DNA of 64,000 bases from a virus (IMGVR_UViG_3300045988_170943:192001-256000); one strand, 5' to 3'; numbered from the stretch's first letter, positions 28,680-64,000 are shown. The notes: generated by a model from the sequence alone, not told the origin. Program-made: numbers and translations.

Positions 28680-28789
28680 GTGCCATGGAACCTATAAAAC
28701 CAGCAAAAGCGACCACATGGCAGAAACCAGTGAAAGGCCCTGGGGAGACAACACCTGGGCAGAGAATCTACAACAAGGGAGACGAGCAC

Positions 28790-39792: not shown

Positions 39793-39998
39793 GTTCTGAC
39801 TGGAGAACCCGCCACCTGGTGACAGACCAGAACCCACTGTATGTGCGTGACGAGAAGGCCGCAGAGGAACTTCGTGCCTTTTTCGCGTCCGGGGCTGTCA
39901 GGATGATAGGTGGCGACGGGCTCTTCTCCGACATGGAGGACCATTACGGGTACGACTGGCGTGACAGCGTAGACGAGATGGGCGACCCAGAGGACTAG
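39741..39998 (+). CDS. Small basic protein of 85 aa that overlaps the 3' end of the Prim-Pol gene.
   Basis: RBS GAGGAG before the ATG. Basic N-terminus KKRKSRKRNGRG and acidic C-terminus. Confidence 0.35.
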   Translation: MPKKRKSRKRNGRGATLGSDWRTRHLVTDQNPLYVRDEKAAEELRAFFASGAVRMIGGDGLFSDMEDHYGYDWRDSVDEMGDPED

Positions 39999-40239
39999 AC
40001 CCGCCCCCTGAACCCTGAGATCAGATACGCCCTCCCTTGGGTGAGGCGGCACACACCCTAGTGCGAGTGCGAAACCACTTGGACGCGACATGCCCCATAC
40101 AGGGAATGTGATCATCACAACAAGGGGTGACCCCTCATAGTTTGTGCCCACTAGATTAATCCGTGCTAACATACGTGACCGTATAGGCCCCGCCCGTTTG
40201 CGTGCGCGGGGCGGGAATCTAGAAATGAGGGGCGGCAAG

Positions 40240-42741: not shown

Positions 42742-42903
42742 TGCCCTAGAGGAAAGGCAGAGCCCAGGCCACAACAGGGGCACATGCAAGATTGGAAAAT
42801 AGTGAAAAAGACACACCACGCCTGTGCAGTTTAGCCCCAACGCTACCCCTCTGACCTGACCCCACCCCCTTTGGCGTCAAGCACCCACCTAGGAGAAGCA
42901 AGC

Positions 42904-43950: not shown

Positions 43951-44191
43951 GACACCACCAACACTTACTTACCTCTCACCTACCTTCACCCTTCCCTGCT
44001 ACTTGGCTCTTGCTCATAGCATTAATGGGATAAGAGTGGAAAAGACACAAGGTAAGCCGCCTGCAAGCGTACTGAGATGCGTCTTGCAGGCGGCTTACCT
44101 GCTTCTAGGACAAAATGCTTAGATACTAGGCCAGAACACTTGATGAATACCCACGAAAACACGGTAGGGTCAGGCAGAGAAGGTACGACAC

Positions 44192-44873: not shown

Positions 44874-45413
44874 ATGGGGAGGATCAGCCCCGAGGTCAAG
44901 ACGGCCCGGAGGATCAGACGCAGACTCAAGGCCGTCTCCGGCACAGTGGCCACTATCATGGTGATAGCCGTCACCCTCATCATTAGCCTCTACGCTGCCG
45001 GTGTCCGCACCTCCTACACGGTGTCAGGGTCCATGGAGCCCACCATTTACCGGGGAGACCTCATCCTGTCCTCCACCCGGTACAACGCCATCGACAAGGG
45101 TGACATCATCGTCTATCAAGCACACTGGTTCCAAGACAAGCCAGTCCTCCACAGAGTCAAAGACAAGGCCCTCAACAAGGATACGGGCGAGTTTCGCGGC
45201 TACATCACACGCGGCGACAACAACGACGCGGACGACCCTGAAACCGTCACCCCCAGCCAAGTAACCTCAGAGGTCATGGCAGTCATCCCCTATGCTGGCT
45301 GGGTTATCAACCCGTGGACGTTCGCGGCCGCTGCCACCCTCGTCATAACACTGACCCTGGCGACGCTCATCAACTGGGAGCAGGTGGCGGCACGTAGAAG
45401 AAAAACACCCTGA
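44874..45413 (+). CDS. Signal peptidase I of the S26B / SipW / ER type.
   Basis: Catalytic-Ser box SGSMEPT. RGDLIL. TRGDNNDADD. Flanking TM segments. Confidence 0.7.
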   Translation: MGRISPEVKTARRIRRRLKAVSGTVATIMVIAVTLIISLYAAGVRTSYTVSGSMEPTIYRGDLILSSTRYNAIDKGDIIVYQAHWFQDKPVLHRVKDKALNKDTGEFRGYITRGDNNDADDPETVTPSQVTSEVMAVIPYAGWVINPWTFAAAATLVITLTLATLINWEQVAARRRKTP

Positions 45414-49043: not shown

Positions 49044-50882
49044 ATGGGATTCTTCTCAAGACGAAACAAGCGCGACTTCAACGTTGATGCGGTCAAAGTC
49101 CCAGAAGTCACCTACCCGGACCTCCAAACCGCACTCCAGTCCGTCACCAACGGCGGAGCAAAAGACACCAAATCCGTCACCATCACCTGGCAGGACGGCA
49201 CCAGTGCGCAAGCCGTCATCTACGGTGACACCCTCAAGTACCTTAACCAGGGCGTCATCAACAGTGAACTGGCCCAGATCATCGAGTCCAGGGTCTCCAC
49301 GTCCCGCACCGACATCCACCCCGGAGCCCTCGACGCCCTCAAAAAGGCTCTTGCAGACGAGGAAACCAGCCACATCGCCGCCGTCGAGCGGGTAGACCAG
49401 GTGTCACCTATGCTCGCAGCATTCATGAACATGATCCTCGGTGAACTCGCAGAGAACCACATCATGCGGCTCCACGACCACGGCCCCGTCACAGAGGTAG
49501 AAGCGGACTGGTCTGTCGATTTCACCCCCACATTCATGCAGAGGTTCACCGGTGTGGACATCCGTGTTGAGCAGGTTAACAGCATGGCTGAGCATGGGCG
49601 GCGTGACCTCCAGCGGGCCGAGACCATCACGCGCGGGGAACCCCTAGGTGACGTCCTGATAGAAAACACTGGCCCACAGCCCGCAGATCCCAGTGAGGAG
49701 CAGCACCTCATCCTTGACCTGCTACTAGACCGAGGCGGACCCATTAGCCTGGAGGACCTGCAACAGCACGCTACCGGCTACATCTGGTCGCACGTGCTCA
49801 AAGCCGCAGAAAACCTGATGTACGACGGTGCAATCGACATCACCTACCCGAACCGTCAGGAGTCGTCACTACCTGACCTCGGCCCACTCACGGTAGCCAA
49901 ACCAGCCACCAACAGTAGCCAAGACGACACTGGCACACAGGACGAGCACGACAGCACCCCAACTGAGGATGGCGCGGCACCCACAACAGGCAGCACCCCA
50001 GAGTCAAGCCAGGTGGAGGACCCCAACCAGAAGCCCACACCTCAGGGCGCCCCCCAGCCAGAAGAAACAGTGCCCCCCGAAGCCCCAGACACAGTGGCCG
50101 TCAGTGCCTTCGACAAGATCATCACAGGCTCAGACGAAGACGACAGCGACGGGTTCACGTTCTTCATGCCAGACGATAACGACCTCACTGACGAAGGAGG
50201 CTTTGACTTCACTGACGAGGATGAAACCCTCACAACAACCATGGCGGGTGAAGACCTAAGGCCCCTCATCAACCAGATCGTGCGCGAATCCACAAACGTC
50301 GATCAGACCATCATCCCTGTACTCACTGAGGAGATTGAGTACAACGCCGAGTTGGAGGCAGGTGTCATCGACCTGGACAACCGCATCAGCGAAGTCCGCC
50401 AAACCTACCAGGAAGACTTCGGCCGTTACAACATCATGGCAATGGACATCATCGGGGATCAGGCCCAGAAAGGTCAGGATGTCACCCTCGAAGGGGCCGG
50501 TGAACCCATCGAGCATGCCCGCGAGGACGCCAACGACCAGTTCTTCACCCTGGAGGACCTAGAGCACCGCCGATTCAACCTCAACGCCACCAGGATCAAC
50601 CTCCTTAAAAGCATCCTAGAGCGCATTACTCACCTTGACGGAGCACACGTCCAGGAGTGCGTCAACCTGATCGAGATGAAGATCCAGGGCATCCAGGACG
50701 TTACTGACACCGCGTTTCACTCCCCCAAGGACGATGAGGCTATCGCCAAGAAAACAGACCTCAAACTCATTGAGTCCGTACTCGTCCCCGAAACCATCAC
50801 CCCAGACGACTCCCCCCTGTTCTACAGGCTCGTCAGCACCATGGGGTTCAACCCGTTCGACAGCACCAGCAGCCAGCAGTGA
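49044..50882 (+). CDS. Acidic hypothetical protein of 612 aa.
   Basis: ORF. Start moved to the internal ATG at 49044. No recognised motifs. Confidence 0.35.
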   Translation: MGFFSRRNKRDFNVDAVKVPEVTYPDLQTALQSVTNGGAKDTKSVTITWQDGTSAQAVIYGDTLKYLNQGVINSELAQIIESRVSTSRTDIHPGALDALKKALADEETSHIAAVERVDQVSPMLAAFMNMILGELAENHIMRLHDHGPVTEVEADWSVDFTPTFMQRFTGVDIRVEQVNSMAEHGRRDLQRAETITRGEPLGDVLIENTGPQPADPSEEQHLILDLLLDRGGPISLEDLQQHATGYIWSHVLKAAENLMYDGAIDITYPNRQESSLPDLGPLTVAKPATNSSQDDTGTQDEHDSTPTEDGAAPTTGSTPESSQVEDPNQKPTPQGAPQPEETVPPEAPDTVAVSAFDKIITGSDEDDSDGFTFFMPDDNDLTDEGGFDFTDEDETLTTTMAGEDLRPLINQIVRESTNVDQTIIPVLTEEIEYNAELEAGVIDLDNRISEVRQTYQEDFGRYNIMAMDIIGDQAQKGQDVTLEGAGEPIEHAREDANDQFFTLEDLEHRRFNLNATRINLLKSILERITHLDGAHVQECVNLIEMKIQGIQDVTDTAFHSPKDDEAIAKKTDLKLIESVLVPETITPDDSPLFYRLVSTMGFNPFDSTSSQQ

Positions 50883-50941
50883 AAACAACAGAGTAGAAAG
50901 ACGCCAGTAGAACATAGCACCGGCCAGGCAAGGAGAACCCA

Positions 50942-53395
50942 TTGGCGGTCGATACCGACAGAGATTACGACTTCGACGACGACACCCCCCGCAATAACGA
51001 ACCTGAAGGTGACGGCGGCGGCAGAATCCTGGTTGCTGTCCTAGCCGTCCTGTTTCTGCCCGCCATCATCATCGCATGGGCCATCTACTACCTGGGGCTC
51101 GCAAAGGGGCGCCAGAAAAGGTCTGTGATCCTCTCCGGCACCCTCACCATGATCGTGATCGCCCTCATGTACGGGTCCCTGTCCAATGCCACAGCCAGAG
51201 CCAGTGCCGCACTAAGTGACGTCACAGGCATCACCCAGAACTGGACCGAGTACATTCCCCTACTAGTCGTCGTCAGTGTCATCCTCGGCGCAGTCGGCGG
51301 GTTCACCCTGACCGTGATCCAGGTTGGCAGACTCATCAAAAACCCGTACCTGCTGCACATGGAAGGCCCCTGGAAGAACTTCACGTTCCGGCCAACCCCA
51401 CTGGAGAACAGGCGCACCAAAAAACTCGTCACCCAGTTGAAAGACGGGTCACTGTCAGACAAGGACAAAGCCCCCCTTGGCATCACCACCAAAATCTATG
51501 AAGACCCCGAGGAGAACAAGAATACAGGTGGACTGAAAACCAAGGCCACATGCGAGGTCGCCTACCGGTACCAGGCGGACGCACGCAAAAACACCGTCAT
51601 GTCCGGTGGTGTCGGATCCGGTAAGACCATCACCATGCTGTCCATGATCCGCTCCGACATCGTGCACGGACTCCCCGTCATCATGATCGACATGAAACGC
51701 GACCCTGAGGTGTCAGCGAAACTCGCCCGCTGGTCCAAGGAGAACGGACGCAACTTCTACCACTTCGTGAACGGAGACCCCCAGGACTACGACGTACCTC
51801 ACTCCGCCGGGCAAGCCTCCTATGACCCACTCATCAACGGCGGTGCAGCCAAGGCAGACATGATCCTCGGGATGCGCGAGTGGGACACCAGCAGCGAAGT
51901 ATACAAGGGCAATGTCCGCCAGTTGCTCCAGGTCACCTTCCAGATGCTTAGACAAGCCGACCGCACCAGAGCAGACCGCATCGACTGGAGCCACGGAGGC
52001 ATCAGCCAACTCGCCTCCGCCATCAAAGACAACAACGCCTTCACTGACCTACTCATGGCCTGCAAAGGGCGCCCTATCTACGACGACGCACAGGCAGTAG
52101 ACCAAGGATCCCGCCACAAGTCCGGGAAACTCTACGGCGCCATGGATGAGGTGCAAGGGTACATGCGCACCCTCACCGCGTCAGCCTATGGCCCATGGCT
52201 ACGTACCGGCGTCACCGACCGTAACATCGACCTCTACGAACTCACAAAGGACGAAAACAGCGGGAACGTCATCCTGTTCTCCATCAACTCCGACAGTGAG
52301 AAAGACTTCGCCGCCTACCTGGGTGCACTCATCATGGCGGACATCAGCGCTGTCAGTGCTCTCAGGCGAAACCGCGGACTGAAGAACCCAGTCAACATCT
52401 ACATCGACGAATTCCAGATCATCCCCCCCACCACACTGGGCGGCATCCTAGAAAAAGCGCGCGCATCCGGGTTCGCCACCACCCTAGCCAGCCAGTCGTT
52501 GGAGCAGGTTATCGTCAAGTCCGAACGCAACGGCGAAGCAAACGTCAACAACATCCTCGACACATCCAGCCACTTCATCATCCACAACGGCGCCTACTTT
52601 GACTCCGCCACCAGGCTAGCGAAAATCGTCGGCGAGGCATGGTTCCCGAAATGGTCCACAGTCAACGACTCCAAGACACACTTCTTCTCGTTCAACTGGA
52701 ACAACAGACGTGACAGCATTGTCCGCAACGACCGAGAACAACGGTACATTGTTGACCCATCTGAGTTCCAGAAACTCAGCGCGCCTTCCCCATCAAACGG
52801 GTTCCTGACCGAAGCGATCATCATCGACAAGTCCACGGTTGACCCACGCTACTCCGGCAGGCCCAGGGCGCTAGCACGCAAGGTGCGGATGATCCCAGAC
52901 GACGCAGTACTCGCCTCATACCCACTGTCCAGAGTCGGAGAGAGCGACTATGCGGGACAGCAGCCAGACAATAAGGAGATGCACCTAGTTGTTGACGGTG
53001 ATACAACTGAGGGCCAGCATGGCGACCACATCTGGGAGGATGACGCCTTCCAGACCGAACCGGACACACAAGGGTACGACCCTGCTGGTTACGGCGACGA
53101 GGATGAGGACGGCGGATTCGGCTGGGTCAGTGACGACAAGGAGCCAGCAGACCCCCAAGAGGTAGAACAGGGCAAGACTGAAACAGGCTACAGCGCACCC
53201 GCCACCAGCAGTCCTGATCGCTCCCGCATCGATTACACCACACCAGCCCATGAGGAACCAGTCTACAACCAGCCTGAGCCCACGACACCCCCAGAGGAAG
53301 ACTATGGTGCCGGGTTCGGGTGGGTCACAGACAGCAGCGACAATACCGAACAGGAAGACCCCAGGACAGTGGGGCTTCCAGAACTTGGTTTCTGA
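50942..53395 (+). CDS. Membrane-anchored P-loop ATPase that looks like a type IV coupling protein (VirD4/TraD/TraG-like). It has an acidic C-terminal tail with two GFGWV-S/T-D repeats.
   Basis: Two N-terminal TM helices. Walker A GGVGSGKT. Walker B NIYIDEFQ. TTG start with RBS AGGAGAA. Confidence 0.55.
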   Translation: MAVDTDRDYDFDDDTPRNNEPEGDGGGRILVAVLAVLFLPAIIIAWAIYYLGLAKGRQKRSVILSGTLTMIVIALMYGSLSNATARASAALSDVTGITQNWTEYIPLLVVVSVILGAVGGFTLTVIQVGRLIKNPYLLHMEGPWKNFTFRPTPLENRRTKKLVTQLKDGSLSDKDKAPLGITTKIYEDPEENKNTGGLKTKATCEVAYRYQADARKNTVMSGGVGSGKTITMLSMIRSDIVHGLPVIMIDMKRDPEVSAKLARWSKENGRNFYHFVNGDPQDYDVPHSAGQASYDPLINGGAAKADMILGMREWDTSSEVYKGNVRQLLQVTFQMLRQADRTRADRIDWSHGGISQLASAIKDNNAFTDLLMACKGRPIYDDAQAVDQGSRHKSGKLYGAMDEVQGYMRTLTASAYGPWLRTGVTDRNIDLYELTKDENSGNVILFSINSDSEKDFAAYLGALIMADISAVSALRRNRGLKNPVNIYIDEFQIIPPTTLGGILEKARASGFATTLASQSLEQVIVKSERNGEANVNNILDTSSHFIIHNGAYFDSATRLAKIVGEAWFPKWSTVNDSKTHFFSFNWNNRRDSIVRNDREQRYIVDPSEFQKLSAPSPSNGFLTEAIIIDKSTVDPRYSGRPRALARKVRMIPDDAVLASYPLSRVGESDYAGQQPDNKEMHLVVDGDTTEGQHGDHIWEDDAFQTEPDTQGYDPAGYGDEDEDGGFGWVSDDKEPADPQEVEQGKTETGYSAPATSSPDRSRIDYTTPAHEEPVYNQPEPTTPPEEDYGAGFGWVTDSSDNTEQEDPRTVGLPELGF

Positions 53396-53490
53396 GGGGC
53401 AAGCACCGCACGCATTGCCACGTAAACACACCAGACGCACGTTTCCTCGATATTTTTTGCGATTCTACTTAACATTTTTATGGAGGGGTA

Positions 53491-55338
53491 ATGCCAGACC
53501 CGATCAACGTCCCTACACCCCCATCCAGGAGAAGGGGAGATATGACGCCACCTAGGAGAGGCGCCACCAACAACCGTGGGCGCACAACCCTGGGGACCCC
53601 TCCGTCCGTGCCTTCAGCACCCGGTGCCCTACCAGACCTTGGCAACATTCCAGGCCCCCGGCAGCGCCCAGGTAGGGCACCGGAGGCTAATGCTACGCCA
53701 CGCCGTACCCCCGCCAGCAGCCTCAAGGTTCCTGGGCTCGCACCAAGCCGCGGCCCAGTACGCACCCCTGACAGGGCAACCACTCCTGACAGGGTGGTAC
53801 GCCAGGAAAGAGTCGTCAACCAGTACGATGATGGGGAAGACCCTTTTGAGCAGATTCCCGTCCGAGACCAGGTTGATGTTGAAGACTACGAGGACTATGA
53901 GGCTGAGCACGTAGAGGTGGACACCACCCCCGAACGTCAACCATCTCTCCGCACCCCCACACCCAGTAGCGCTGACAGTGGCGAGGATGACCATGAGGAC
54001 ACCACCGAGCCTGCACCTAAGAAGAAGGGCATGTTCGGTCGCAAAGCCAAGAGCAGCGAATCCGCGTCGAAAAAGCACACCAAGTCCAGTGCACCCACTA
54101 AAACCAGCACCCCATCCATCCTGGATGATGACGAAGACGAACTCGGGTTCAAGAGGAACTTCATCGACAAGAAGAACAAACGCCTCCTCCCATTCGGCAA
54201 GAATACCGGCAGCAGCGGAGACCGAAGAAAAGGCCGCAAGGTCCGCAATAAGGACATCGACCCCCGCAAAAACAGGATCATCAAGATCAACGGGTACCGC
54301 ATCTTCTTCCTCACTGCCTGTCTCGCACTATTGGCGCTAGGAGCCTACAATGCCTGGTTCCCACAGAAAGCACTCACCGTCGATGAGACAGCACAGGTAG
54401 CCCAGCAGGCCCTCGGCAGGACAAACTTCCCAGAAGCACGAGGAGAAGGATTCGCCAAGGACTTTCTGCAAGCCTACCTGACCACCAGCGACGAAACCTC
54501 CCAGCAGGCCCTCGCATACTTCTTCAACGGAACCCTAGAGAACGCGAACAACTCCAGCGCGGAGACAAACCGTCAGACATCAGCCGACTATAAGCAACAA
54601 ATCCTGTACGGCCCAACAGTCTACTCAGCCACCAGCGTCACAGACCAGGTTGCCACCTATGTGGTTGGAGCACTCGTGAAGGCAGTCCCAGCGGACGGCA
54701 GCACCCCCGCCCCGGACAGCAACGGAAAAACCGGCGGCGAGGCAACATGGATGTTCTACTCCATCAACGTCTTCTACGACAAGGCCAGCGACCGACTGTT
54801 CATCACACCAGACTCCCCTACCGTCGTACCGAACATGAACGTTGGTAGTTCCCGCGACCTTCCAGGGCCGCAGTCACTCGGAACTGGGGAATCGGACTCC
54901 GACCTCAAGTCGAAGGTGTCATCCACCGTCCTCGGGTTCATGTCCGCTTATGCGACCTCCTCCCCCCAGGACCACACGGCACTCGACCAGTACGTAGTCA
55001 ACGATGCACCCCAGGAACTCAAGACGGGCCTGTCTGGTACGTACTCGTTCGACGGAAATGTGAACAATGCGGTCACCTTTGAGGCGTTCCCCACAAAGGA
55101 CGCTAACGTAGCCAAGGTGAAGGTGACTGTCAACTGGAAGAGATCACTGGGCGCTAACGGTAGCCAGTCAGCGAGGTACACGTCAACCTATGTGATGACG
55201 CTACAGAACGTGTCCGGTAAGTGGCAGGTGTCAAAGTTCTCGCCGTTCACGTACCTTCCTGACGAATCCGAGTCCGTCAACAACAGTAATGGAGACCAGA
55301 AGGCGGCCGCATCGGATGGCAGCACCAGCGGATCCTGA
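53491..55338 (+). CDS. Bitopic membrane protein. The Pro/Arg-rich cytoplasmic N-terminus is followed by one TM and a ~340-aa extracytoplasmic domain. It may be a TcpC/VirB8-like transfer protein.
   Basis: TM FFLTACLALLALGAYNAWF. The family assignment is a guess from layout and context. Confidence 0.3.
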   Translation: MPDPINVPTPPSRRRGDMTPPRRGATNNRGRTTLGTPPSVPSAPGALPDLGNIPGPRQRPGRAPEANATPRRTPASSLKVPGLAPSRGPVRTPDRATTPDRVVRQERVVNQYDDGEDPFEQIPVRDQVDVEDYEDYEAEHVEVDTTPERQPSLRTPTPSSADSGEDDHEDTTEPAPKKKGMFGRKAKSSESASKKHTKSSAPTKTSTPSILDDDEDELGFKRNFIDKKNKRLLPFGKNTGSSGDRRKGRKVRNKDIDPRKNRIIKINGYRIFFLTACLALLALGAYNAWFPQKALTVDETAQVAQQALGRTNFPEARGEGFAKDFLQAYLTTSDETSQQALAYFFNGTLENANNSSAETNRQTSADYKQQILYGPTVYSATSVTDQVATYVVGALVKAVPADGSTPAPDSNGKTGGEATWMFYSINVFYDKASDRLFITPDSPTVVPNMNVGSSRDLPGPQSLGTGESDSDLKSKVSSTVLGFMSAYATSSPQDHTALDQYVVNDAPQELKTGLSGTYSFDGNVNNAVTFEAFPTKDANVAKVKVTVNWKRSLGANGSQSARYTSTYVMTLQNVSGKWQVSKFSPFTYLPDESESVNNSNGDQKAAASDGSTSGS

Positions 55339-55459
55339 CAGCAAACAGAAGCATTTATCAAAAACATGTAGAAATATTTGATATTGGTCAGAAACTCTTA
55401 CACAACCGGTTAACTGTGAGAGTTAATCTGATCAGATACACACAAACGGAGAAGAAGAA

Positions 55460-55780
55460 ATGATCCTAGGAGCAATTCTAAGCGGGTTGCTGAGTATCCC
55501 CGCTGGCGGTCTTGCAGCCCTACAGAACGACCTGGTTCGTAACTGGATCGGACCAGCCGCACTGATTGTTGTTGCCGCTGTCGCAGTGAAGCACCTGATT
55601 AAGGGTGAGCCACGTAAGATGGCCATCTATGCTGTTGCCGCTATTCTCGGCTTCGTTATCATCTACGGTGCTCCAGTACTTGTCGGTGGCGAGGACGCAA
55701 GCGTAACCAGGACCGTCGTTAACACGACTAAGAACAACATTAACGTCGCTACAGCACCCTTGGTACTCGACGCGAGTTGA
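55460..55780 (+). CDS. Small two-TM membrane protein, a pilin-like (VirB2/TrbC-like) candidate.
   Basis: 106 aa, two hydrophobic helices, RBS GGAGAAGAAGAAATG, followed by a strong terminator. Confidence 0.35.
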   Translation: MILGAILSGLLSIPAGGLAALQNDLVRNWIGPAALIVVAAVAVKHLIKGEPRKMAIYAVAAILGFVIIYGAPVLVGGEDASVTRTVVNTTKNNINVATAPLVLDAS

Positions 55781-55811
55781 TCAACACATGTTGTGAACTC
55801 AGCATGATTCA

Positions 55812-55853
55812 GGTGGCCCACCAGTCAGGCACAGTCCAGGCTGGTGGGCCACC
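55812..55853 (+). terminator. Hairpin terminator. 13-bp perfect stem ggtggcccaccag / ctggtgggccacc.
   Basis: Read directly after the stop at 55780. Confidence 0.6.
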
Positions 55854-55940
55854 ATCATTTACTAGAACGAATACATTTTGTGGGGAGGAGTGTGCGCTGA
55901 TACATGATATTCCATGCTAGTCAAATGAAGAGGAAACCTA

Positions 55941-57296
55941 ATGCTAGGACATAGAAGCAAACTTGACGTTGCAGTACAGTCAGCCGTGGACAACATTCTC
56001 TTCTCGAAGAAAGAAGCGTGGGCCTACTATCGCCTATCAACAACTGTTTACGACTTCCTGGCGTCTCAGCAGAAAATAGAAACCGGCCTGAGAATCACCA
56101 GCGCGTTCGCCAACATCATGTCCAACAAACAAGACTCCGTTGACGGGCACCTCATCGTCACAAACGTCCCCCTCGATGTTGACGCCTGGGAGGCCCAAAT
56201 CCTGGGAGTCATGGAGGACCACCCTGAAGGCCCAGGGTTTAAACGATTCATGGCCCAACAGAACGCCTTCCTCCGCAAGCGCGAGTACTCCAGGCGCGTC
56301 TGCTACGTGGGAATCAACCTAGGAGGCAGGAATACCCTCGACTTCACAAACCTTAACGTCCTGGAGTCGGGCTTCAAGAACGCCACAGAGACACTGAAAC
56401 AGTGGATCGACAAGATGTGGCACCAAAAGGACGGCACTGTTGACAAGGCTGAGGAGGACATGTACCGGCGTCGAGAGGAGGATATGTACGCAATCCTGTC
56501 CAATGGTGCTCTCCAGGCGCAGCGGGCCACCACTGAGGAGATACTGTTGGCGATTAAGCGCATGTTCTACCCACACATGCCCGCACCTCATCTCGAAATT
56601 GATCACAGTAACAGACTGTCGCAAGGTGACATGGACATTGAGATGCTGGGGCAGATCACCCCCAAGGCAAGGTTCCTGAAGTTCACGCAGCCATATGAGA
56701 ACATCGAGTTAGAGTCCTACCGGGCGTGCCTGACGTTTACCAGGTTCCCGAAGACATTCACGTTCCCCTATGACAACTTCCCGTTCCTGTACCTCCCAGC
56801 GACAATGAACGTCCCATTCACCGCTTTCAGCCGATTCACGCTCTACCCTAACGCCAAGATGAAATCTGATGTTGAACGCAAGTCCAAAGAGATGCGCGAC
56901 GAGGTTGACAACATCATGGCGACCCGTGACGCCAGTGACGGGATGATGAGTGGCCTACCAGCCGGTGTCGCTGAGACCATTGAGGACCTGGAGCAGATCA
57001 AGGCGATGCTGGAGGAAGACAAGGTGCCGTGGCTACGGGCCTCCTACCACCTCGTCCTTGAAGGGCCGACAGAGAAGTTCATTCAAGATGTCTACGCCGC
57101 GTTACGCCAGGAGTACCAGGACCGGGATACGGTGATCACCTGGACGTCCGGCGACCAGATGGACCTGTTCTTGGAGCAGATGCCAGGCGACACGAAGCGA
57201 ATCAAGTCTTTTGAGTTTATCACGAACCTGGCTCTATTAACAACCAGCGGTTTCAACTTCGCGTCCGAGATCGGGGACCGAATTTACGGCCTGTGA
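55941..57296 (+). CDS. Hypothetical protein of 451 aa with no P-loop.
   Basis: ORF with RBS GAGGAAACCTAATG. Confidence 0.35.
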   Translation: MLGHRSKLDVAVQSAVDNILFSKKEAWAYYRLSTTVYDFLASQQKIETGLRITSAFANIMSNKQDSVDGHLIVTNVPLDVDAWEAQILGVMEDHPEGPGFKRFMAQQNAFLRKREYSRRVCYVGINLGGRNTLDFTNLNVLESGFKNATETLKQWIDKMWHQKDGTVDKAEEDMYRRREEDMYAILSNGALQAQRATTEEILLAIKRMFYPHMPAPHLEIDHSNRLSQGDMDIEMLGQITPKARFLKFTQPYENIELESYRACLTFTRFPKTFTFPYDNFPFLYLPATMNVPFTAFSRFTLYPNAKMKSDVERKSKEMRDEVDNIMATRDASDGMMSGLPAGVAETIEDLEQIKAMLEEDKVPWLRASYHLVLEGPTEKFIQDVYAALRQEYQDRDTVITWTSGDQMDLFLEQMPGDTKRIKSFEFITNLALLTTSGFNFASEIGDRIYGL

Positions 57297-57397
57297 AGAA
57301 GCGGATAGAAACACAGTGAGCAAAGACGCAACGCAAAGAGTTAAGTAGGTGCAGGTAAATGGCTAGAAGACGTTCACGCGGTCGTGGAGGATCCGCC

Positions 57398-58237
57398 ATG
57401 AAGCGATTCGTCATGACCCCAGTCGCTTTCTTGATCGTTGTGGGCCTGATCTATGGGGTAGCCCAGATCAACGGAATTCACAGCATCAAGGACGCCCTGA
57501 ACTACATGCGCGTGATCAGTGACGAAACGGGCACGAAAGTCAACAACTGCGTTGGCGGGAAGGACTGCAAGATCCTGCCTGACGGGTCCACCACACCAAC
57601 AGGATCCGCGGACCAGGGGGCAGTCAGCAGCGGCAGTCAGGCCGATACGAGCGGGGGAAGCACCTCAAACGGGCAGGAGAGCAACAGTGGGGCTGAGGCA
57701 CCCACTGGTGACAACAAGTACCAGGCGGCCCTGAATAACCTGGCCATTGCGCCAGCAAAAAAGGTCGCCTACAAGCGTAGCGAGTGGAAGCACTGGGTGG
57801 ACGTCAACGGCAAGTGCAACGCCCGCGAGCAGACCCTTGTCAACCAGGGTAAGAACGTCAAGACCGACACCAAAACCTGCCGGGTTCTCAGTGGCACCTG
57901 GGTTGACCCCTACAGTGGGGAAACCATCACCAACCCCAAGAACATCGACATTGATCACGTAATCCCCCTGGGGTATGTGGCGAGAAGCGGCGGGCAGGAC
58001 TGGAGTCCACAGAAGAAACAGGAGTACGCCAATGACGTGGACACTGTTCTGCTGGTGACATCCGCGAAGGAGAACCGGTCCAAGTCTGACAAGGGACCAG
58101 CCGACTACATGCCACCAAACAGTGCTTACGCCTGCACATACGCCCAGAAGTGGATCGACATTGCCGGAAAGTACCAGATCAGCATCACTCAGGCTGACAA
58201 ACAGACCCTATCCGACGCTCTCACCAAGTGTAAATGA
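57398..58237 (+). CDS. Secreted His-Me finger (HNH/DUF1524-type) nuclease.
   Basis: Signal peptide MKRFVMTPVAFLIVVGL. KNIDIDHVIPLGYVARSGG...DVDTVLLVTSAKENRSKSDKGPADYMP matches the DUF1524 / GmrSD C-terminal nuclease pattern (D-H-x-x-P ... N). Confidence 0.55.
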   Translation: MKRFVMTPVAFLIVVGLIYGVAQINGIHSIKDALNYMRVISDETGTKVNNCVGGKDCKILPDGSTTPTGSADQGAVSSGSQADTSGGSTSNGQESNSGAEAPTGDNKYQAALNNLAIAPAKKVAYKRSEWKHWVDVNGKCNAREQTLVNQGKNVKTDTKTCRVLSGTWVDPYSGETITNPKNIDIDHVIPLGYVARSGGQDWSPQKKQEYANDVDTVLLVTSAKENRSKSDKGPADYMPPNSAYACTYAQKWIDIAGKYQISITQADKQTLSDALTKCK

Positions 58238-58284
58238 GCGCCCCTGTAGTTAACCCCGAACGTCAGTAACCAAGGAAGGTTCAC

Positions 58285-59142
58285 ATGTCAACAGCCGCCA
58301 ACCGAGCCAAGGCTGCCGAAAGGTTCAGGCAGCAGAAGAACCAGGCGGAACACAGTAACTACGATGTTGGTGCCAGCCATATGAGCATCGAAGGGAAGTT
58401 GCGCCTCCTAGAGGAGATGGACCGTGGCGACCTTGTTGGCATCTTCAAGGAATGGCAGCCTAAGGTATCGAAGCGTCGCCGCCGTGGCGCTCCGCTGGAT
58501 CAGCGTGTCTCCATCACCGTCACCGACATGGAGCGCACCAACCTGAACGACGAAATCAAGACGATCAAGATGACTGAGAACATAAGCATGAGCCAGTTCA
58601 TCCGTAACAGGGCCATAGCCTCCGTCGATATCGTTGGGTGGCGTGACATCGCAGAAAAGGCGCTCGCGGAGATCGAGGACACAGTAAAGAACCAGGCGGC
58701 CATGCGCAAAAAGCGGTCCGCCTTGAACCTCCAGGCAGACGAGGAGACAGACCCCGCGACCGCAGCCTACATTCGGGCACAGGTTGACGACATCACCCGC
58801 CGCCTGGATCGCATCGTCTCCAAGCCACAATCCCGTAAACGTCGCCTGTCAGGCCGCATGTCTATGCCTGAGGCGGAGCAGGTGAAGTGGCGCGCACAAC
58901 GCCTCTGCATCTCTACGAGTGACTATCTGCGGATGATGATCTTCAACCTGGAGCCGAACGGTATTGCCGACTGTCACATGAGCCTGGACGCGAAGCGCCT
59001 CTTCTACATCTCGATCATCGAGGTTGCTCAGAACGGTTGGGGTACTCCACCATCTATCTACCAGTGCTCCCAGTGTGAGAACTACATGGATGAGATTAGG
59101 CGTCTGCGCAGTGAGGTTGACCAGTTGCGCGCATTCACGTAA
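58285..59142 (+). CDS. Tandem ribbon-helix-helix protein, a MobC-like relaxosome accessory candidate.
   Basis: Two RHH-like blocks: RVSITVTDMERTNLNDEI and RLSGRMSMPEAEQVKWRAQRLCISTSDYLRMMI. The second resembles MobC R-x-V-R-L-T-P-E-E...S-x-S-x-Y-x-R. Confidence 0.45.
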   Translation: MSTAANRAKAAERFRQQKNQAEHSNYDVGASHMSIEGKLRLLEEMDRGDLVGIFKEWQPKVSKRRRRGAPLDQRVSITVTDMERTNLNDEIKTIKMTENISMSQFIRNRAIASVDIVGWRDIAEKALAEIEDTVKNQAAMRKKRSALNLQADEETDPATAAYIRAQVDDITRRLDRIVSKPQSRKRRLSGRMSMPEAEQVKWRAQRLCISTSDYLRMMIFNLEPNGIADCHMSLDAKRLFYISIIEVAQNGWGTPPSIYQCSQCENYMDEIRRLRSEVDQLRAFT

Positions 59143-59196
59143 ACCACACCACCCCAAAAGGAAATATGGTTAGGGCAGTAAACCCCAAACACAACG

Positions 59197-59232
59197 AAAA
59201 GACCTCCTCGTTATAATTAGGGGGTCTTTTTT
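59197..59232 (+). terminator. Rho-independent terminator. Stem aaaagacctcct / agggggtctttt with one G-U wobble, then a T tract.
   Basis: Read directly after the stop at 59142. Confidence 0.6.
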
Positions 59233-59292
59233 GTTGTGATATTGCGGAGTACTGTATCGCGTACTGAAAGTTCCAGGAGGGGCTGCAAAATA

Positions 59293-59823
59293 ATGAGAAA
59301 GTTCCTCAAGGGCCTTAACTCAGACCGGGGAGAATCCCTCGTGTCAGTGCTCATCGTCATGCCGCTACTCGTCGTCATGCTTGTCACCATGGTTGACTTC
59401 AGCGTCTACATCCTCAACCAGGGGCAGGTACGCGCAGCAGCCCGAGACGCAGCCCGAACCGTCGCCATCTACGGAGGAAACGGAACCAGCAGCGGACAGA
59501 TCACCCCCATCGCCAAAGCATACGGCACTATCGAGTCATGCCCCAACCACACGTCGGCAGAGTGCTCCCTCATCAAGAAACTAGACAAGGACAGCGCCCT
59601 CGTCCACTCCCAGGTGAAAAACGTTCAGTGCACCCCTAGCATCGCCACCAAAATAGGTCAGAACGTCCACTGTGACGTCACCTGGGAGTACAAGGGCATC
59701 GCCGGATCCGCTCTACCGCTCATGCGCACCATCGGCGGGCTCAGCGGAGAAGTCAGCACACGAGGCACATCCGAGTCCGAGGTCCGCTACGACGGGGCAC
59801 AGGACCTCGTTTACACCAACTGA
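59293..59823 (+). CDS. TadE/TadG-like pseudopilin (Flp pilus assembly).
   Basis: RBS AGGAGG. N-terminus GESLVSVLIVMPLLVVMLVTMVDFSVYIL...AAARDAARTVAI is typical of the TadE-like N-terminal domain. Confidence 0.55.
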   Translation: MRKFLKGLNSDRGESLVSVLIVMPLLVVMLVTMVDFSVYILNQGQVRAAARDAARTVAIYGGNGTSSGQITPIAKAYGTIESCPNHTSAECSLIKKLDKDSALVHSQVKNVQCTPSIATKIGQNVHCDVTWEYKGIAGSALPLMRTIGGLSGEVSTRGTSESEVRYDGAQDLVYTN

Positions 59824-59843
59824 CGGCAGAGGGACGAGAACAC

Positions 59844-60506
59844 ATGCGAACATTCCGCCGCTACCGCCTCAAAAACCTACTAAACCACCTCTGCCGTAAC
59901 ACCAGCCTGGGTTTCAAGTCCGACGACGGCGATGGGGCCCTCACCCTGTCTATCGTGTTCGTGCCACTCGCCGTCATCTGTCTTGGGCTCACCATCAACA
60001 CGAGCCAGGTCGTGTCCAACAAATTCGAGTACGACACGATAGCCCAGTCATCCGCCGAGACCGCAGTGAAAACCATTGACGCGCGCGGAAACCTCGACGA
60101 GAAAGCCATCAAGGCACTCATCCGGGAGCACCGAGAACAGATGGAAGCCAGCACCGCATACTCCGGGACCTGCAACATCCAAGAGATCAATGGGAAGAAA
60201 GTCACCCTCCCCTACTACGAAGTGCGGCTAGAGACATCACGCAACGTCAAAGGTCGCCGCGTCAGCAGCACCTACAAGATAGACTCCTCCAACCCGAACA
60301 CTGTTGACGTGCCCGACATTGAAAACAAGAACACCCCATACAGGGTCATCTCAGCGGAAGTGTACACGGCCACATCCTCCCCATTCGTCGCTATCGGACT
60401 GCAACCCTGCAACTATCACAAGTCCACCGTAAGCGCCATCAGTTTCGGAAGCAACAGGGACCTCGGCGGCACCCACACCAAAGCAAAAAAGACCCCGAAA
60501 CCCTAA
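59844..60506 (+). CDS. Second TadE-like/pseudopilin-like membrane protein.
   Basis: N-terminus GALTLSIVFVPLAVICLGLTINTSQVV, which has a similar layout. Confidence 0.4.
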   Translation: MRTFRRYRLKNLLNHLCRNTSLGFKSDDGDGALTLSIVFVPLAVICLGLTINTSQVVSNKFEYDTIAQSSAETAVKTIDARGNLDEKAIKALIREHREQMEASTAYSGTCNIQEINGKKVTLPYYEVRLETSRNVKGRRVSSTYKIDSSNPNTVDVPDIENKNTPYRVISAEVYTATSSPFVAIGLQPCNYHKSTVSAISFGSNRDLGGTHTKAKKTPKP

Positions 60507-60701
60507 CAGAACAAGCCATACACTCCACCCGCGTTACCCGCAGCCCATCGCAAAAGCCGCGCACTTAGGGGTGCGGGTAACATGTGCATGAGCGTGGATA
60601 TTCGCTCACAAGAATCGACAGGCCAAGACCCACCGAAACAAGAAGAGGCGACAGCCAAAACTGGTGGGCCACTGGTACCATCGGGACGTTAGGACAACAC
60701 A

Positions 60702-62132
60702 ATGGGCGATCACAGCACCCCCGTCGGGCTCACAGAGGAACTACGCGGGAGGACGGTGGTCGCAGACACATCCAGCCTCCTCATGGTAGGTACGGGACTT
60801 CTCAACGTCCTCCAAGACTGCACCCTCGTCATCCCAGCGGTCGTTGTCCGTGAACTAGAAGACAAACGGTCCCACCCAACAATCGGTCTCCTGTCCCGCC
60901 AATGGATCCGTCTCCTCGAAGAATTACGGGTCACCCAAGGCGGAAAACTCGCCGAAGGAGTATCAGCACCCGCGCCCTGGGAAGACATCACCATCCGTGT
61001 CGAACCCAACCACAGGGATCAGAAGTCCCTCCCCGAGCACCTACAGGACGGAAGCCACGACAGCACCATCCTCGCAGTCGCCAACAACCTCCGCCAGGAC
61101 GGAGACAAGAACGTCATCCTCCTGTCCAACGACACCCCCATGCGCCTGCACTCCACCCTCGACTTGAACATTGACGCCATCGAGTTCAACGCCACAAGAG
61201 TTCTTGACGCCACCCCATTCGACGGGCGCTACACAGTGACCCTCACCAGCAGCGAGTGTGCCAACAGCAACTACTGGGGCGAGAAAGACGGCAGCAAGGG
61301 CCTGGAGCGGGTAGAAGACCTGATCCTGTCCCGCCTCCCAGAGGACAGGGCAGAGAACGCCTACATCACCATCACCCTGGATGATGCTGACAGCAAGCCC
61401 ATCGCGCACCTGATCCTCACTGGAGACACGCTCACCCCGGTCGCACGCAAGGTGAAGTCAGAGAGCATCACTGGCCGCACCATCGAACAGGACGTCGCCA
61501 TGACCTGGCTGAAGATGCCCGCTAGCCAGGTACCCATCGTGTCCCTCGGAGGGTCAGCAGGAACCGGCAAGACTCTCGTCGCTGTCGCCACCGGCATCAA
61601 CGAACTCAAGTACCACTACGACAAGATCATCGTGTTCAGGTCCCTGCACGAACTCGGGCAAGGGCAGGAGATCGGTTTCCTTCCTGGAGACGTCAATGAC
61701 AAGATGGCCGCATGGTCCGGGGCAGTGTTTGACGCCATCGACGTTATCGCCTCCAAGGGCCGCAGCAAGACCCAGGGTAAACCTGACGACAACAAGATCA
61801 AAAAGTACAAGGAAATGGTGGAGATTGCACCCATCACATTCCTCCGAGGCCGGTCCCTGGCGCGCACATTCATGATCCTGGAAGAGGCACAAAACTTCTC
61901 ACGCAACGAAATTCTGAACATCCTGTCCCGCGCTGGTGAGGGGTCCAAGGTGGTCCTCACGTTCGACGCAGCCCAGGTTGACAACCGGTTCCTCCAGTCC
62001 GGGAAGCACGCAGACATCTGGAGCGTTGTTGACAGTCTCAAGGACAGTGACCTTTTCGCACACATCACCCTGAAGCAAACTGAACGCTCCGAGGTAGCAG
62101 AACTGGCTGCATCAATACTGGAGAACCAGTGA
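60702..62132 (+). CDS. PhoH2-type protein, with an N-terminal PIN domain fused to a PhoH-like P-loop ATPase.
   Basis: PIN VVADTSSLL...NDTPMRL. Walker A LGGSAGTGKT. PhoH-like block ITFLRGRSL...ILEEAQN. Confidence 0.65.
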   Translation: MGDHSTPVGLTEELRGRTVVADTSSLLMVGTGLLNVLQDCTLVIPAVVVRELEDKRSHPTIGLLSRQWIRLLEELRVTQGGKLAEGVSAPAPWEDITIRVEPNHRDQKSLPEHLQDGSHDSTILAVANNLRQDGDKNVILLSNDTPMRLHSTLDLNIDAIEFNATRVLDATPFDGRYTVTLTSSECANSNYWGEKDGSKGLERVEDLILSRLPEDRAENAYITITLDDADSKPIAHLILTGDTLTPVARKVKSESITGRTIEQDVAMTWLKMPASQVPIVSLGGSAGTGKTLVAVATGINELKYHYDKIIVFRSLHELGQGQEIGFLPGDVNDKMAAWSGAVFDAIDVIASKGRSKTQGKPDDNKIKKYKEMVEIAPITFLRGRSLARTFMILEEAQNFSRNEILNILSRAGEGSKVVLTFDAAQVDNRFLQSGKHADIWSVVDSLKDSDLFAHITLKQTERSEVAELAASILENQ

Positions 62133-62272
62133 CCTAAAACTAGCCGCAAACAGGCAGTGGCAAAAAGAAGGCGGTCGATATTTTTCGGGATATTGGCCGC
62201 CTTCTCGCACATATTTTGACACATCGGGCTGGCCTAAGAACACCCGCGAACTAACATTTTGAGGTTTGGCAG

Positions 62273-64000
62273 ATGGTCGCAGAGAACGGCACATTCTACA
62301 TCACCCCAGGTGTAGGTACCAGTACACACAGTGCCGTCAACCGTGCATGGACAAGGGTGGCGTCCACTGTCGCCGTATTCTTCGCGCTCGTCGCCATCAT
62401 ACTGTCCACCATCACCGCCACCCCCCTGGGGCAAGCAACAGCATCCAGCCACACTGCACAAGCCGGAACATTCGGGATCTTCTGCTCAGAGATAATGGGC
62501 AGCAACATGGACTCCCAGGCGAAATGGTACCAGTGGCTCAAGTCCTACCCGGCCTCAGACAAGGATGGCCGTCGTCTCACCGCCCAGGAGGCCCTAGAGA
62601 ACGGGCTTTTCTTTGTCAACTACCATGGCGAAGGTAAAGGTGATTTCCTGGTCAAAGACAAGTCTGACGAATCCTACAAGGAGCACTCTAAGACTGATGA
62701 GGCCAAACTGAAGGCCAGCAGAACTCTCAATAACTGCGCCCTCAACTCTATCGGTGTCTGGACTGCCAATGATCTTCTTGGTATTGCCAACGGGCTGTCC
62801 GGCATCACCCAGTACATTGTGATGCACACGTTCGACTCGAACATGATCTGCTCCGATGCGAAAGACACGACCGGCGACTGTTTCAACATGCTGAAAATCA
62901 TTGGTGGTACAGGAGCAAACGGCCGCGAGTCAGCGAACGCCAACAAAGGCGGAATCATCGGGGCGCTCACCGGGTCACTGTTCTTCCCGCTCGCGTCGCT
63001 CGTATTCATCGCAGTTGGTGTCGGAGTATTCATTAAACTAGCAAAGATGAAAATCCGGGACATCTTCTTCGGTGTCCTGTGGGCGTTCATCGCCTACATG
63101 GTCAGTCTCATCATGCTGCTGAACCCGTCCCTGCTCGCTAAAGCCCCACTGGCAGTATCCAACACAATAGCGTCCTGTGTGATCGGGGCGTTCAGTGGTG
63201 GCGTCTGCGGAACAAACAACTCTGGAACCCTCCAGGAGAACGAATCCACGTCAGACGCCGTTTGTCGTGCGTATGCGAACAACAGCGACCCGTCCAGCGA
63301 CATGCAGATGATCGCTGGGTCGCTCACCTGTAAGATCTGGAAAGCGTTCGTGCTGAACATGTACGCTGAGGGATCTTTCGGGACGGGGTTCGACAACCTG
63401 GACACACTTGACAAGAACAGGCCCACCAATAAAATACTCACCGATGCTGGTCTCAAACCAGAAGACTACTGTGTGAACTTGTACACAGAAAAGAGCATCG
63501 ACAGCCAGAAGAACGGGGTACTCACCACCACCGACAACGGTGACGGAAACAAGATCTGTAACCTAGTCACATACCAGATGTACCTGGAAACCAGCGTGAA
63601 ATCCGGTGAAGACACCCTGCCGGACACAGGGAAGATAGACACCCGCTGGTACGAGGTAATTGACGCGGCAGCCGCCAACAACGGGTTCTGGTCCTCCTGG
63701 TCCGGCAGCATGTCCAGCACGTTCAACAAGAACGGTATCGCCCTCCTTGCCATCTTCGTTGTCGTCCTCGGCGGTCTCGTCCTCATCGTCACATCCCTGT
63801 ACGCCGCCGTCTACTTCATCTCCTCCATTATCCTCATGGCTTTCAGCCCGATCTTCCTGCTCATCGGCATCGACCCTGACAGGGGGCGCAGAATCCTCCT
63901 CGGGTTCTTCCAGAAGGTCGCCACCAACGTGATGAAGTACATCGCGTCCGCTGGGTTCCTCGTCGCCAGCATCGCCATGTATGGGGGCATCCTCGATGAC
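62273..64000 (+). CDS. Polytopic membrane protein that continues past the window end. It is VirB6/TrbL-like (a conjugal transfer channel component).
   Basis: Open reading frame from the ATG at 62273 to beyond 64000, not listed in the track. Signal/TM VASTVAVFFALVAIILSTITA and at least four further hydrophobic helices (IIGALTGSLFFPLASLVFIAVGVGVFI, VLWAFIAYMVSLIMLL, IALLAIFVVVLGGLVLIV, SSIILMAFSPIFLLIGI). Confidence 0.5.
   Translation, partial: MVAENGTFYITPGVGTSTHSAVNRAWTRVASTVAVFFALVAIILSTITATPLGQATASSHTAQAGTFGIFCSEIMGSNMDSQAKWYQWLKSYPASDKDGRRLTAQEALENGLFFVNYHGEGKGDFLVKDKSDESYKEHSKTDEAKLKASRTLNNCALNSIGVWTANDLLGIANGLSGITQYIVMHTFDSNMICSDAKDTTGDCFNMLKIIGGTGANGRESANANKGGIIGALTGSLFFPLASLVFIAVGVGVFIKLAKMKIRDIFFGVLWAFIAYMVSLIMLLNPSLLAKAPLAVSNTIASCVIGAFSGGVCGTNNSGTLQENESTSDAVCRAYANNSDPSSDMQMIAGSLTCKIWKAFVLNMYAEGSFGTGFDNLDTLDKNRPTNKILTDAGLKPEDYCVNLYTEKSIDSQKNGVLTTTDNGDGNKICNLVTYQMYLETSVKSGEDTLPDTGKIDTRWYEVIDAAAANNGFWSSWSGSMSSTFNKNGIALLAIFVVVLGGLVLIVTSLYAAVYFISSIILMAFSPIFLLIGIDPDRGRRILLGFFQKVATNVMKYIASAGFLVASIAMYGGILDD

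Follow-up and report, generated by a model that had tools for sequence, protein, structure and literature searches.

A divided VirB4 within a two-locus type IV secretion system on a giant extrachromosomal element of the human oral microbiome

Gene content of the window and its place on the element

The DNA analysed here is a 64,000-nucleotide stretch (IMGVR_UViG_3300045988_170943:192001-256000; hereafter the window) of an uncultured giant extrachromosomal element of ~419 kb from the human oral microbiome. Its final part, positions 49044-64000, carries eleven co-directional open reading frames (ORFs) on the + strand, the last of which starts at 62273 and leaves the window. An earlier note, made from the window sequence, had read this row as a conjugation-type transfer module that mixes parts of a type IV secretion system (T4SS) with parts of a Tad pilus, and had recognised neither a VirB4 ATPase nor a relaxase in it. 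The row was confirmed at its coordinates, nearly all of its gene labels were backed by profile or structure searches, and the component profiles support its reading as a T4SS module. Together with a second locus on the same element it encodes what appears to be a complete Gram-positive T4SS structural set, in which two genes, divided at a domain boundary, make up VirB4.

The window locus supplies the coupling ATPase, TcpC, a TcpD/VirB2-like protein, the N-terminal half of VirB4 and a VirB6-like protein, with a hydrolase encoded just outside; its extras are a NikA-like ribbon-helix-helix (RHH) protein, two TadE-like pseudopilins, an HNH nuclease and a PIN-PhoH protein. The second locus supplies TcpE, the ATPase half of VirB4 and the Tad-type proteins T2SSF, T2SSE and a TadZ-like protein. 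The two loci were placed relative to each other on contig k119_16908 (418,686 bp). Locus L001 of this contig is identical to the window across 13,299 bases, and window position 1 therefore corresponds to contig position 120,834. Three stretches of the contig were inspected, L001, L088 (just upstream of the window) and L112 (the second locus), which with the window make up ~103 kb, about a quarter of the genome.

VirB4 is split between two distant genes

ORF 55941 (55941-57296, + strand; 451 amino acids, aa) is a stand-alone VirB4/TcpF N-terminal domain. It had been put forward as a candidate for one of the missing roles, and it was assigned to VirB4 by three methods. The NCBIfam profile ATPase_TcpF matches it at 5.1e-8 (query residues 17-447, profile positions 8-429 of 813), phmmer aligns it at 8e-26 to an 827-aa VirB4, annotated 'ATP-binding protein', that is encoded on plasmid NZ_CP099838 of Nocardiopsis exhalans (residues 13-404), and a Foldseek search with its AlphaFold2 (AF2) model (pLDDT 77.9) returned TrwK/VirB4 of plasmid R388 as all of the top 14 matches, the best at 2.5e-13. 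The fold search was needed, as a sequence search of the PDB with the profile of the ORF 55941 family gave no match. The protein has no Walker A motif and no ATPase domain.

The ATPase half was absent from the window and L001 when all ORFs were searched using phmmer and hmmsearch --max with three profiles; these searches matched just the Walker A region of the coupling protein. The remark that no VirB4 ATPase is present was therefore correct for the ATPase half, but the N-terminal half of VirB4 does lie within the window. In a low-GC relative (L018; GC, guanine-cytosine content), the part of the reference VirB4 from residue 430 to 783 aligns to a distinct AAA_10 protein of 401 aa, whose gene lies 3 kb upstream of that for the N-terminal half (VirB4-N). 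The ATPase half of window-type elements was located by a profile built from closer relatives: it is a 401-aa AAA_10 protein encoded on contig k119_16908 at 321,214-322,419, on the same strand as ORF 55941 (176,774-178,129 on that contig) and 143 kb from it. Stand-alone AAA_10 proteins align to residues 430-783 of the 827-aa VirB4, with both Walker A and Walker B present. As residues 13-404 correspond to ORF 55941 and 430-783 to AAA_10, the split falls at the VirB4 domain boundary. The same two-locus layout was found in four other IMG/VR contigs, with the loci ~142-210 kb apart.

A gene that encodes half of a known protein could be a truncated pseudogene in a decaying T4SS remnant without function, as the missing ATPase domain of ORF 55941 and the lack of a relaxase nearby would suggest. 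The conservation data contradict this and exclude it, so that it is given next to no weight. The ratio of nonsynonymous to synonymous substitution rates (dN/dS) of ORF 55941 is 0.017-0.019 against relatives that are 96-99% identical, the lowest in the module. Its family forms 90 clusters at 90% identity, all of 448-501 aa except one 405-aa fragment, and in a search of 1.84 billion representatives the best ~48 VirB4-N matches (representatives counted at 50% identity) are 444-492 aa long, fragments aside; full-length VirB4s of ~820 aa, matched over their first ~440 residues, rank after these stand-alone forms. The N-domain-only form is thus a conserved family of 444-501 aa apart from fragments, and this uniform length together with the lowest dN/dS shows that ORF 55941 is not an accident of truncation. 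The ATPase half is moreover intact elsewhere on the contig.

Other proteins of the T4SS set

The coupling protein (type IV coupling protein, T4CP; 50942-53395, + strand, 817 aa) is of the VirD4/TraD type. It is matched by Pfam TrwB_AAD_bind (1.8e-7) and TraG-D_C (1e-6), both above cut-off, and by NCBIfam SXT_TraD (4e-18), and has three N-terminal transmembrane (TM) segments, a Walker A motif (GGVGSGKT), a Walker B motif and an acidic tail in which GFGW occurs twice, at aa 725 and 791; its first description as a T4CP-like ATPase with a repeated tail motif thus holds. In an alignment of six coupling proteins, GSGKT, YIDEFQ and the L-P of an extreme C-terminal LP(D/E)L are invariant, and an (E/D)DGGFG(W/F) motif occurs in three of the six; dN/dS is 0.09-0.11. 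The orthologue from a Clostridiales metagenome-assembled genome (MAG; DUQJ01000040.1, L058 5011-7845) carries an insertion of ~130 aa exactly within Walker A (GSGK / ALHID...THN / T), which has the look of a mini-intein, with an HN end followed by Thr.

TcpC (VirB8-like; 53491-55338, + strand, 615 aa) is matched above cut-off by Pfam PF12642 (TpcC) at 2.2e-11 over aa 321-580, and is bitopic as had been described, with a long basic, Pro-rich cytoplasmic N-region, one TM segment at ~aa 265-290 and an external TcpC domain. It is followed by a small membrane protein (55460-55780, + strand, 106 aa) with three hydrophobic segments, for which the matches to TrbC/VirB2 (0.006) and TcpD (0.007) are weak, the latter far below cut-off; its position is conserved in all T4CP-type loci. 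This protein had been described as pilin-like with a terminator of its own. The label is in line with the weak VirB2 and TcpD matches, and a terminator-like stem-loop (55812-55853, + strand; 18-nt arms, 89% complementary) does lie directly 3' of the gene, but it has no T-run, which is why a simple terminator scan did not call it.

The VirB6/TcpH-like polytopic protein (62273-64000, + strand) has the first 576 of its 1143 aa inside the window. When the sequence past 64000 was inspected, the gene was found complete and followed by the gene of a membrane-anchored lysozyme (L001 15060-16964; 634 aa, Phage_lysozyme2 at 2.1e-27, TM segment at aa 197-215), which takes the place of the TcpG/CwlT-like hydrolase. 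The VirB6-like protein's own match, to the CD3337/EF1877 family at 1.7e-4, is below cut-off; its orthologues match PF04610 (TrbL), and six TM segments and a cytoplasmic C-terminal coiled coil agree with the VirB6/TrbL-like label. By the logic that recognises a conjugative system from mating pair formation (MPF) proteins, a T4CP and a relaxase, VirB4 is present in split form only.

A nuclease coupled to VirB4-N, and accessory proteins

Directly downstream of the VirB4-N gene lies that of a membrane-anchored HNH nuclease of the GmrSD_C/DUF1524 type (57359-58237, + strand; 292 aa, Pfam GmrSD_C at 3.1e-12), which had been labelled a secreted His-Me nuclease and was found to have an N-terminal TM anchor. 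The two genes adjoin in every locus examined and overlap in some, making the nuclease the most faithful neighbour of VirB4-N. Eleven aligned orthologues share a basic N-tail, one TM segment, a Ser/Gly-rich linker and a DIDH...NR.K core, and have six or seven Cys per sequence at largely conserved positions. From the positive-inside rule and the cysteine pattern, we infer that the catalytic domain is probably extracytoplasmic.

The RHH DNA-binding protein (58285-59142, + strand; 285 aa) is NikA/MbpA-like, of the relaxosome-accessory type, with Pfam NikA-like matching at 2.9e-6 (aa 184-229) and NCBIfam MbpA at 8.6e-4; its dN/dS is 0.02-0.03. It had been called a MobC-like protein with tandem RHH domains. 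The second domain is the one matched by the NikA-like profile, but the first is suggested by pattern alone, and an internal repeat alignment was no better than shuffled sequences, so that the tandem arrangement was dropped.

The PIN-PhoH protein (60702-62132, + strand; 476 aa), a PhoH2/YlaK-type nuclease-ATPase, was confirmed by Pfam PIN_4 (1.7e-13) and PhoH (2e-39), and a stem-loop with 16-nt arms (62166-62205, + strand) lies 3' of its gene. The modules of L058, L075 and L018 do without this protein, a clade-specific accessory. Its candidacy as a replacement VirB4 ATPase was rejected, given its absence from several clades and the existence of a true ATPase half.

The acidic protein (49044-50882, + strand; 612 aa, pI 4.26) has an N-terminal MGFFSR motif, a GGFDF motif within an acidic linker and a coiled coil at its C-terminus. 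The suggestion that it might be the missing relaxase or VirB4 was abandoned: it has no Pfam, NCBIfam or PHROG match, its alignment contains no invariant His and no P-loop, and its orthologues are confined to the nearer clades, being missing in the deeper-branching modules L058 and L075. A single-sequence AF2 model had a pLDDT of 41 and was unusable; dN/dS is 0.18-0.19. The protein is a clade-specific accessory, neither relaxase nor ATPase. It shares an acidic GGF(D/G)(F/W) motif (aa 385-389) with the tail of the coupling protein (aa 724-728 and 791-794). The GGFDF-type motif is invariant among the orthologues of the acidic protein, and its counterpart in the coupling protein is likewise conserved; judging from this pattern it may be a common docking peptide.

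A DnaG-type primase (46985-48862, + strand; Pfam Zn_ribbon_DnaG, DNAG_N, Toprim, DnaB_bind) opens the conserved block ahead of the coupling protein. It is syntenic with the T4SS genes in L003, L009-17, L014, L016, L058, L067 and L075.

Tad-type parts are interleaved at both loci

The gene order of the second locus is T2SSF, T2SSE, a 319-aa protein, a 205-aa protein, TcpE, AAA_10, a 281-aa protein and a ParA/TadZ-like protein. TcpE (PF12648, VirB3-like), found at this locus only, directly precedes AAA_10. A second, larger T2SSE-family ATPase (953 aa; L112 14144-17005, minus strand) is encoded convergently just past the TadZ-like gene.

In the window, TadE-like pseudopilin 1 (59236-59823, + strand; 195 aa, or 176 aa from the gene-caller start at 59293) is matched by Pfam TadE at 4.7e-8. 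TadE-like protein 2 (59844-60506, + strand) has no Pfam match of its own, and its orthologues in L009-L017 are matched by TadE-like 1 at ~1e-4, so that the two genes are paralogues and both pseudopilin labels stand. Each protein has one N-terminal TM segment. T4SS and Tad genes are thus interleaved at both loci, with TadE-like genes among T4SS genes in the window, and TcpE and the VirB4 C-half among Tad genes at the second locus; the mixture of parts remarked on earlier is a conserved feature of the whole lineage. A Flp pilin and an A24 prepilin peptidase were not identified in the parts inspected.

A SipW/archaeal-type signal peptidase I (TIGR02228, 6e-25) is encoded close to the T4SS genes, at 44874-45413 of the window, and likewise in a distant relative (L004 6577-7128). 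Its substrates may be the TadE-like proteins or the small membrane protein. The idea that this S26 peptidase is a TraF-like pilin-maturing enzyme was weakened by its SipW/archaeal type.

Conservation of the module

The recurring gene order is exonuclease, DnaG, (acidic protein), T4CP, TcpC, TcpD-like, VirB4-N, HNH, RHH, TadE, TadE, (PIN-PhoH), VirB6 and lysozyme, with those in brackets present in some clades. It is kept in contigs whose VirB4-N is 52%, 47% and 39% identical, one of them 727 kb long, and in a MAG contig from a digester with a GC content of 32%, minus the acidic protein and PIN-PhoH. A compact version at 49% GC has no detectable RHH or TadE genes, and more distant low-GC groups retain VirB4-N, HNH, RHH and VirB6, or VirB4-N and HNH alone. 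Synteny spans relatives at 32-99% protein identity, GC contents of 26-58% and contigs of up to 727 kb. As the same order occurs in many independent contigs across this range of identity, the arrangement is far beyond chance. All module genes are under purifying selection (dN/dS 0.02-0.2).

Two further observations were made among low-GC relatives. In ENA contig k141_400906 (GC 26%), a row of SecA, SecY and SecG (L087 15066-18707) lies immediately upstream of VirB4-N and HNH. Near VirB6, a surface adhesin with SpaA/T-Q ester domains is encoded (L018 17824-20016, minus strand), reminiscent of the sortase-anchored surface module described in Hodor megaplasmids (PMC12934698).

The carrier element

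The PIN-PhoH protein of the window is residue-identical on nine contigs of 0.2-1 Mb. The breakpoints of two of these (418,686 bp and 420,306 bp) do not coincide, which fits a circular genome of ~419 kb; the element is probably circular. One sister contig is from a human oral metagenome. The GC content of the element is 56-58%. IMG/VR lists relatives among its viral contigs (80-437 kb), and the sample ids of many follow the style of the Human Microbiome Project (HMP). At the DNA level, megablast of the region found nothing similar in 72,556 plasmid and 50,697 phage records, and tblastn of the coupling protein and ORF 55941 gave no match in the same number of phage records; the best plasmid matches of the coupling protein are Spiroplasma proteins at 24% identity. 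The VirB4-N family is carried by one of 185,579 species genomes, a MAG. From the Gram-positive-type parts of the machine, the host is probably an oral Gram-positive bacterium.

The window also encodes GyrB, a PrimPol-like protein, a GHKL ATPase, ThyX, an exonuclease and the signal peptidase and DnaG described above, and holds no tRNA or Rfam match. After the lysozyme gene, beyond the window, come small membrane proteins and then a sigma-70 gene. Just upstream of the window (L088 5822-9835) lies the gene of a 1337-aa DnaE-type DNA polymerase III (PolIII) alpha subunit with an Intein_splicing domain. An NAD salvage operon at 25822-30240 encodes NAPRTase, NAD synthase, an isochorismatase/nicotinamidase-like protein and an NrtR-type regulator (Nudix-wHTH). 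A TnpB/Cas12f-like protein at 9041-10570 (Cas12f1-like_TNB, 2e-16) is probably part of an IS200/IS605-type insertion, and at 22344-24785 a polynucleotide kinase-phosphatase (PNKP; AAA_33 + HAD_PNKP) stands beside a convergent 2H phosphoesterase, with the look of an RNA-repair pair.

The block at 37249-43950 comprises the PrimPol-like protein (847 aa, without a Pfam hit of its own), the GHKL ATPase (865 aa) and ThyX, and is syntenic with a 573-kb Logan contig (L086 15496-20873), in which it stands directly after a cluster of TcpE, AAA_10 and TadZ. The cumulative GC skew of the window peaks at ~36000-44000. Around these positions the + strand goes from G-rich to C-rich and strongly A-rich, while the genes remain on the + strand; this turn near replication genes may be a replication-related switch. 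One relative, IMGVR_UViG_3300012642_000011 (437,576 bp; L016/L023 and L069/L072), has the module twice, as mirror images in opposite orientations that lie 15.4 kb from either end; by its look this contig is a foldback (inverted-duplication) artefact of assembly, and the genome behind it would measure ~218 kb.

Since these contigs are listed in IMG/VR, the element could be a huge phage, in which the T4SS and Tad genes would serve, for example, phage-plasmid spread between cells, remodelling of the host envelope or control of superinfection. Several auxiliary genes are phage-like (ThyX, PNKP, NAD salvage, the GHKL ATPase with its match to the rIIA PHROG, the intein-bearing PolIII alpha and the Phage_lysozyme2 protein), the family is missing from isolate genomes, one MAG contig aside, and 'huge phages' that resist easy classification are on record from the mouth (PMC12297358). 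Set against this, Pfam and PHROGs gave no match to capsid, portal, terminase or tail families in the ~103 kb, a search that novel capsids can escape; no profile reassigned the genes of the row to phage morphogenesis, the outcome that would have told against the T4SS module; the phage records gave no match; and the rIIA match covers the ATPase domain only. Hodor megaplasmids were removed from a huge-phage catalogue for the same reason, having no TerL (PMC12934698). A phage is accordingly thought improbable, more so than the import machine considered below.

Proposed role of the machine

The window is read as one of two loci that encode a Gram-positive (Tcp/MPF-FA-like) T4SS of the ~419-kb element, and the likeliest role of this machine is cell-to-cell transfer of DNA, a reading that we hold to be probable. 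In such a machine the acidic tail of the coupling protein, with its GFGW and LP(D/E)L motifs, would dock RHH-bound DNA, in the way that the TraD tail docks TraM in the F plasmid. The Tad-type parts would build a pilus or pseudopilus that aids mating contact, which is what the thin pilus does in R64. The nuclease may be tethered to the machine via its cytoplasmic tail, and DnaG could serve replication or the priming of transferred DNA. The two VirB4 halves would join in trans with TcpE, TcpC and VirB6 to form a complex at the inner membrane; in R388, the N-domain of VirB4 contacts VirB3 and the tails of VirB8 (PDB 7o41, 8rtb).

Several points weigh against transfer as the role. No match to MOB, Rep_trans or HUH families was found by Pfam and NCBIfam among the proteins of the window, L001, L088 and L112, so that no relaxase is in view over the ~103 kb, and no origin of transfer (oriT) was identified there either. 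The distant split of VirB4 has no tested precedent and its assembly in trans is assumed. The contigs of the element are classed as viral in IMG/VR, and a quarter of the genome was inspected. The roles given to the nuclease, the TadE-like proteins and PIN-PhoH are drawn from position and topology.

The same lack of a relaxase would suit a T4SS-like machine for DNA exchange or import (or for non-conjugative secretion or adhesion) that works with a Tad pilus, as in Ced/Ups or in ComB of Helicobacter, and whose external nuclease processes incoming or outgoing DNA. Competence systems have entry nucleases, EndA and NucA, which the nuclease here resembles. The tight interleaving of T4SS and type IV pilus genes at both loci, and the invariable coupling of a predicted membrane-anchored extracytoplasmic nuclease to VirB4-N, point the same way, as does the spread of VirB4 function over two proteins in Ced/Ups, the archaeal systems being without a known relaxase (PMC11868833). 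Against this, the recruitment of substrates for export has as its hallmarks a VirD4/TraD coupling protein and an RHH protein of the NikA-like kind; giant elements need a horizontal route, and related giant elements are read as conjugative. Exchange or import is therefore regarded as unlikely.

Comparison with known systems

The order of the pCW3 locus of Clostridium perfringens, tcpC-tcpD-tcpF...tcpH/tcpG, is collinear with the window, and so is an actinobacterial plasmid row annotated 'conjugal transfer protein - conjugal transfer protein - VirB4'. The Tcp system of pCW3 (with Con of ICEBs1 and Tn916; MPF-FA/FATA) shares TcpC, a TcpD-like protein, TcpF/VirB4, a TcpH/VirB6-like protein and a TcpG/CwlT-like protein in similar order with the element, and in pCW3-type systems TcpE stands directly before the VirB4 ATPase, as it does at the second locus here. 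The element differs from pCW3 in that its coupling protein is of the VirD4/TraD type, where that of pCW3 is the FtsK-like TcpA, its TcpF is two genes 143 kb apart on a 419-kb carrier, and it has the additional conserved HNH, TadE-like, PIN-PhoH and DnaG proteins. No TcpM-type or other relaxase was seen in the inspected part.

Both VirB4 halves align to the VirB4 of the Nocardiopsis exhalans plasmid, and the model of ORF 55941 matches TrwK/VirB4 of R388 (PDB 8rtb, 7o42). Those VirB4s are single polypeptides of ~800 aa, whereas here the domains are separate, distantly encoded proteins.

The IncI1 plasmid R64 has a NikA/NikB relaxosome and, next to its T4SS, a thin pilus of type IV, and thus resembles the present element in having a T4SS and a type IV pilus system on one element and a NikA-type RHH protein. 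In R64, pil and tra are separate operons and the pilus is of type IVb; here the pilus parts are Tad-type (type IVc-like) and interleaved at both loci, no NikB-type relaxase was seen in the parts inspected, and the envelope context is of the Gram-positive type, with neither a secretin nor outer-membrane parts in view. The Ced/Ups system of Sulfolobales (PMC11868833) likewise moves DNA through a T4SS-like machine dependent on type IV pili, and divides VirB4 function between CedB and CedD. It differs in being archaeal and importing chromosomal DNA, in that both Ced proteins keep an ATPase domain, and in lacking a coupling protein, TcpC and RHH. Phrase searches of the available literature for a split or truncated VirB4 returned nothing comparable besides Ced.

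As to the carrier, Inocles of oral Streptococcus are several hundred kb long with a GC content of 24-32%, are lost in culture, are confined to the cellular fraction and had no alignable counterpart in phage or plasmid databases (PMC12340149). Hodor megaplasmids of gut Bacillota (GC 45-47%) were found in huge-phage and viral catalogues (PMC12934698). The present element is similar to both in its size of several hundred kb, in being known from metagenomes only and absent from isolates, and in having VirB4 and VirD4; like Inocle it carries gyrase, an exonuclease, PolIII and a sigma factor. Its GC content of 56-58% sets it apart from both, and it is likened to them by gene content and lifestyle, not by sequence; the Rep_3/ParAB and the MOBH-like HD relaxase of Hodors were not seen in the inspected part. 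We infer that the carrier is a giant extrachromosomal element of the Inocle kind whose host is high in GC, and the reading as a conjugative element is supported by these precedents of giant conjugative elements hidden in 'huge phage' catalogues. Neither paper describes a split VirB4, the nuclease or Tad interleaving.

The individual parts of the machine are already known. Their arrangement appears to be undescribed: the genes for the two VirB4 halves are stably separated and distant, a nuclease gene always accompanies that of the N-half, and T4SS and Tad genes are interleaved at both loci, all of it conserved in a wide lineage of giant elements. A bolder proposal, for which we can claim only tentative confidence, is that of a distinct class of transfer machine that typifies a whole lineage of uncultured giant elements: a deeply conserved two-locus T4SS/Tad hybrid with VirB4 as a complex of separate halves, whose N-half would be a membrane scaffold tethering an extracellular HNH nuclease, and which would move elements of 200-700 kb without a canonical relaxase across low- and high-GC hosts.

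Implications

VirB4 is regarded, in a passage of PMC4027160, as the one universal T4SS protein and as a marker for finding and classifying T4SSs. With the halves of a stably split VirB4 140-210 kb apart, marker surveys would record VirB4 as absent from the window locus and take the ATPase of the other locus for an orphan, and a widespread group of giant elements would thereby go unrecognised as potentially conjugative. The split is also a natural experiment on the VirB4 N-domain acting alone. The findings add to the case that some of the catalogued 'huge phages' are giant conjugative elements resembling plasmids, and the pairing of the N-half with the nuclease and the interleaving with Tad parts provide testable leads on how very large DNA spreads among Gram-positive bacteria of the mouth and gut.

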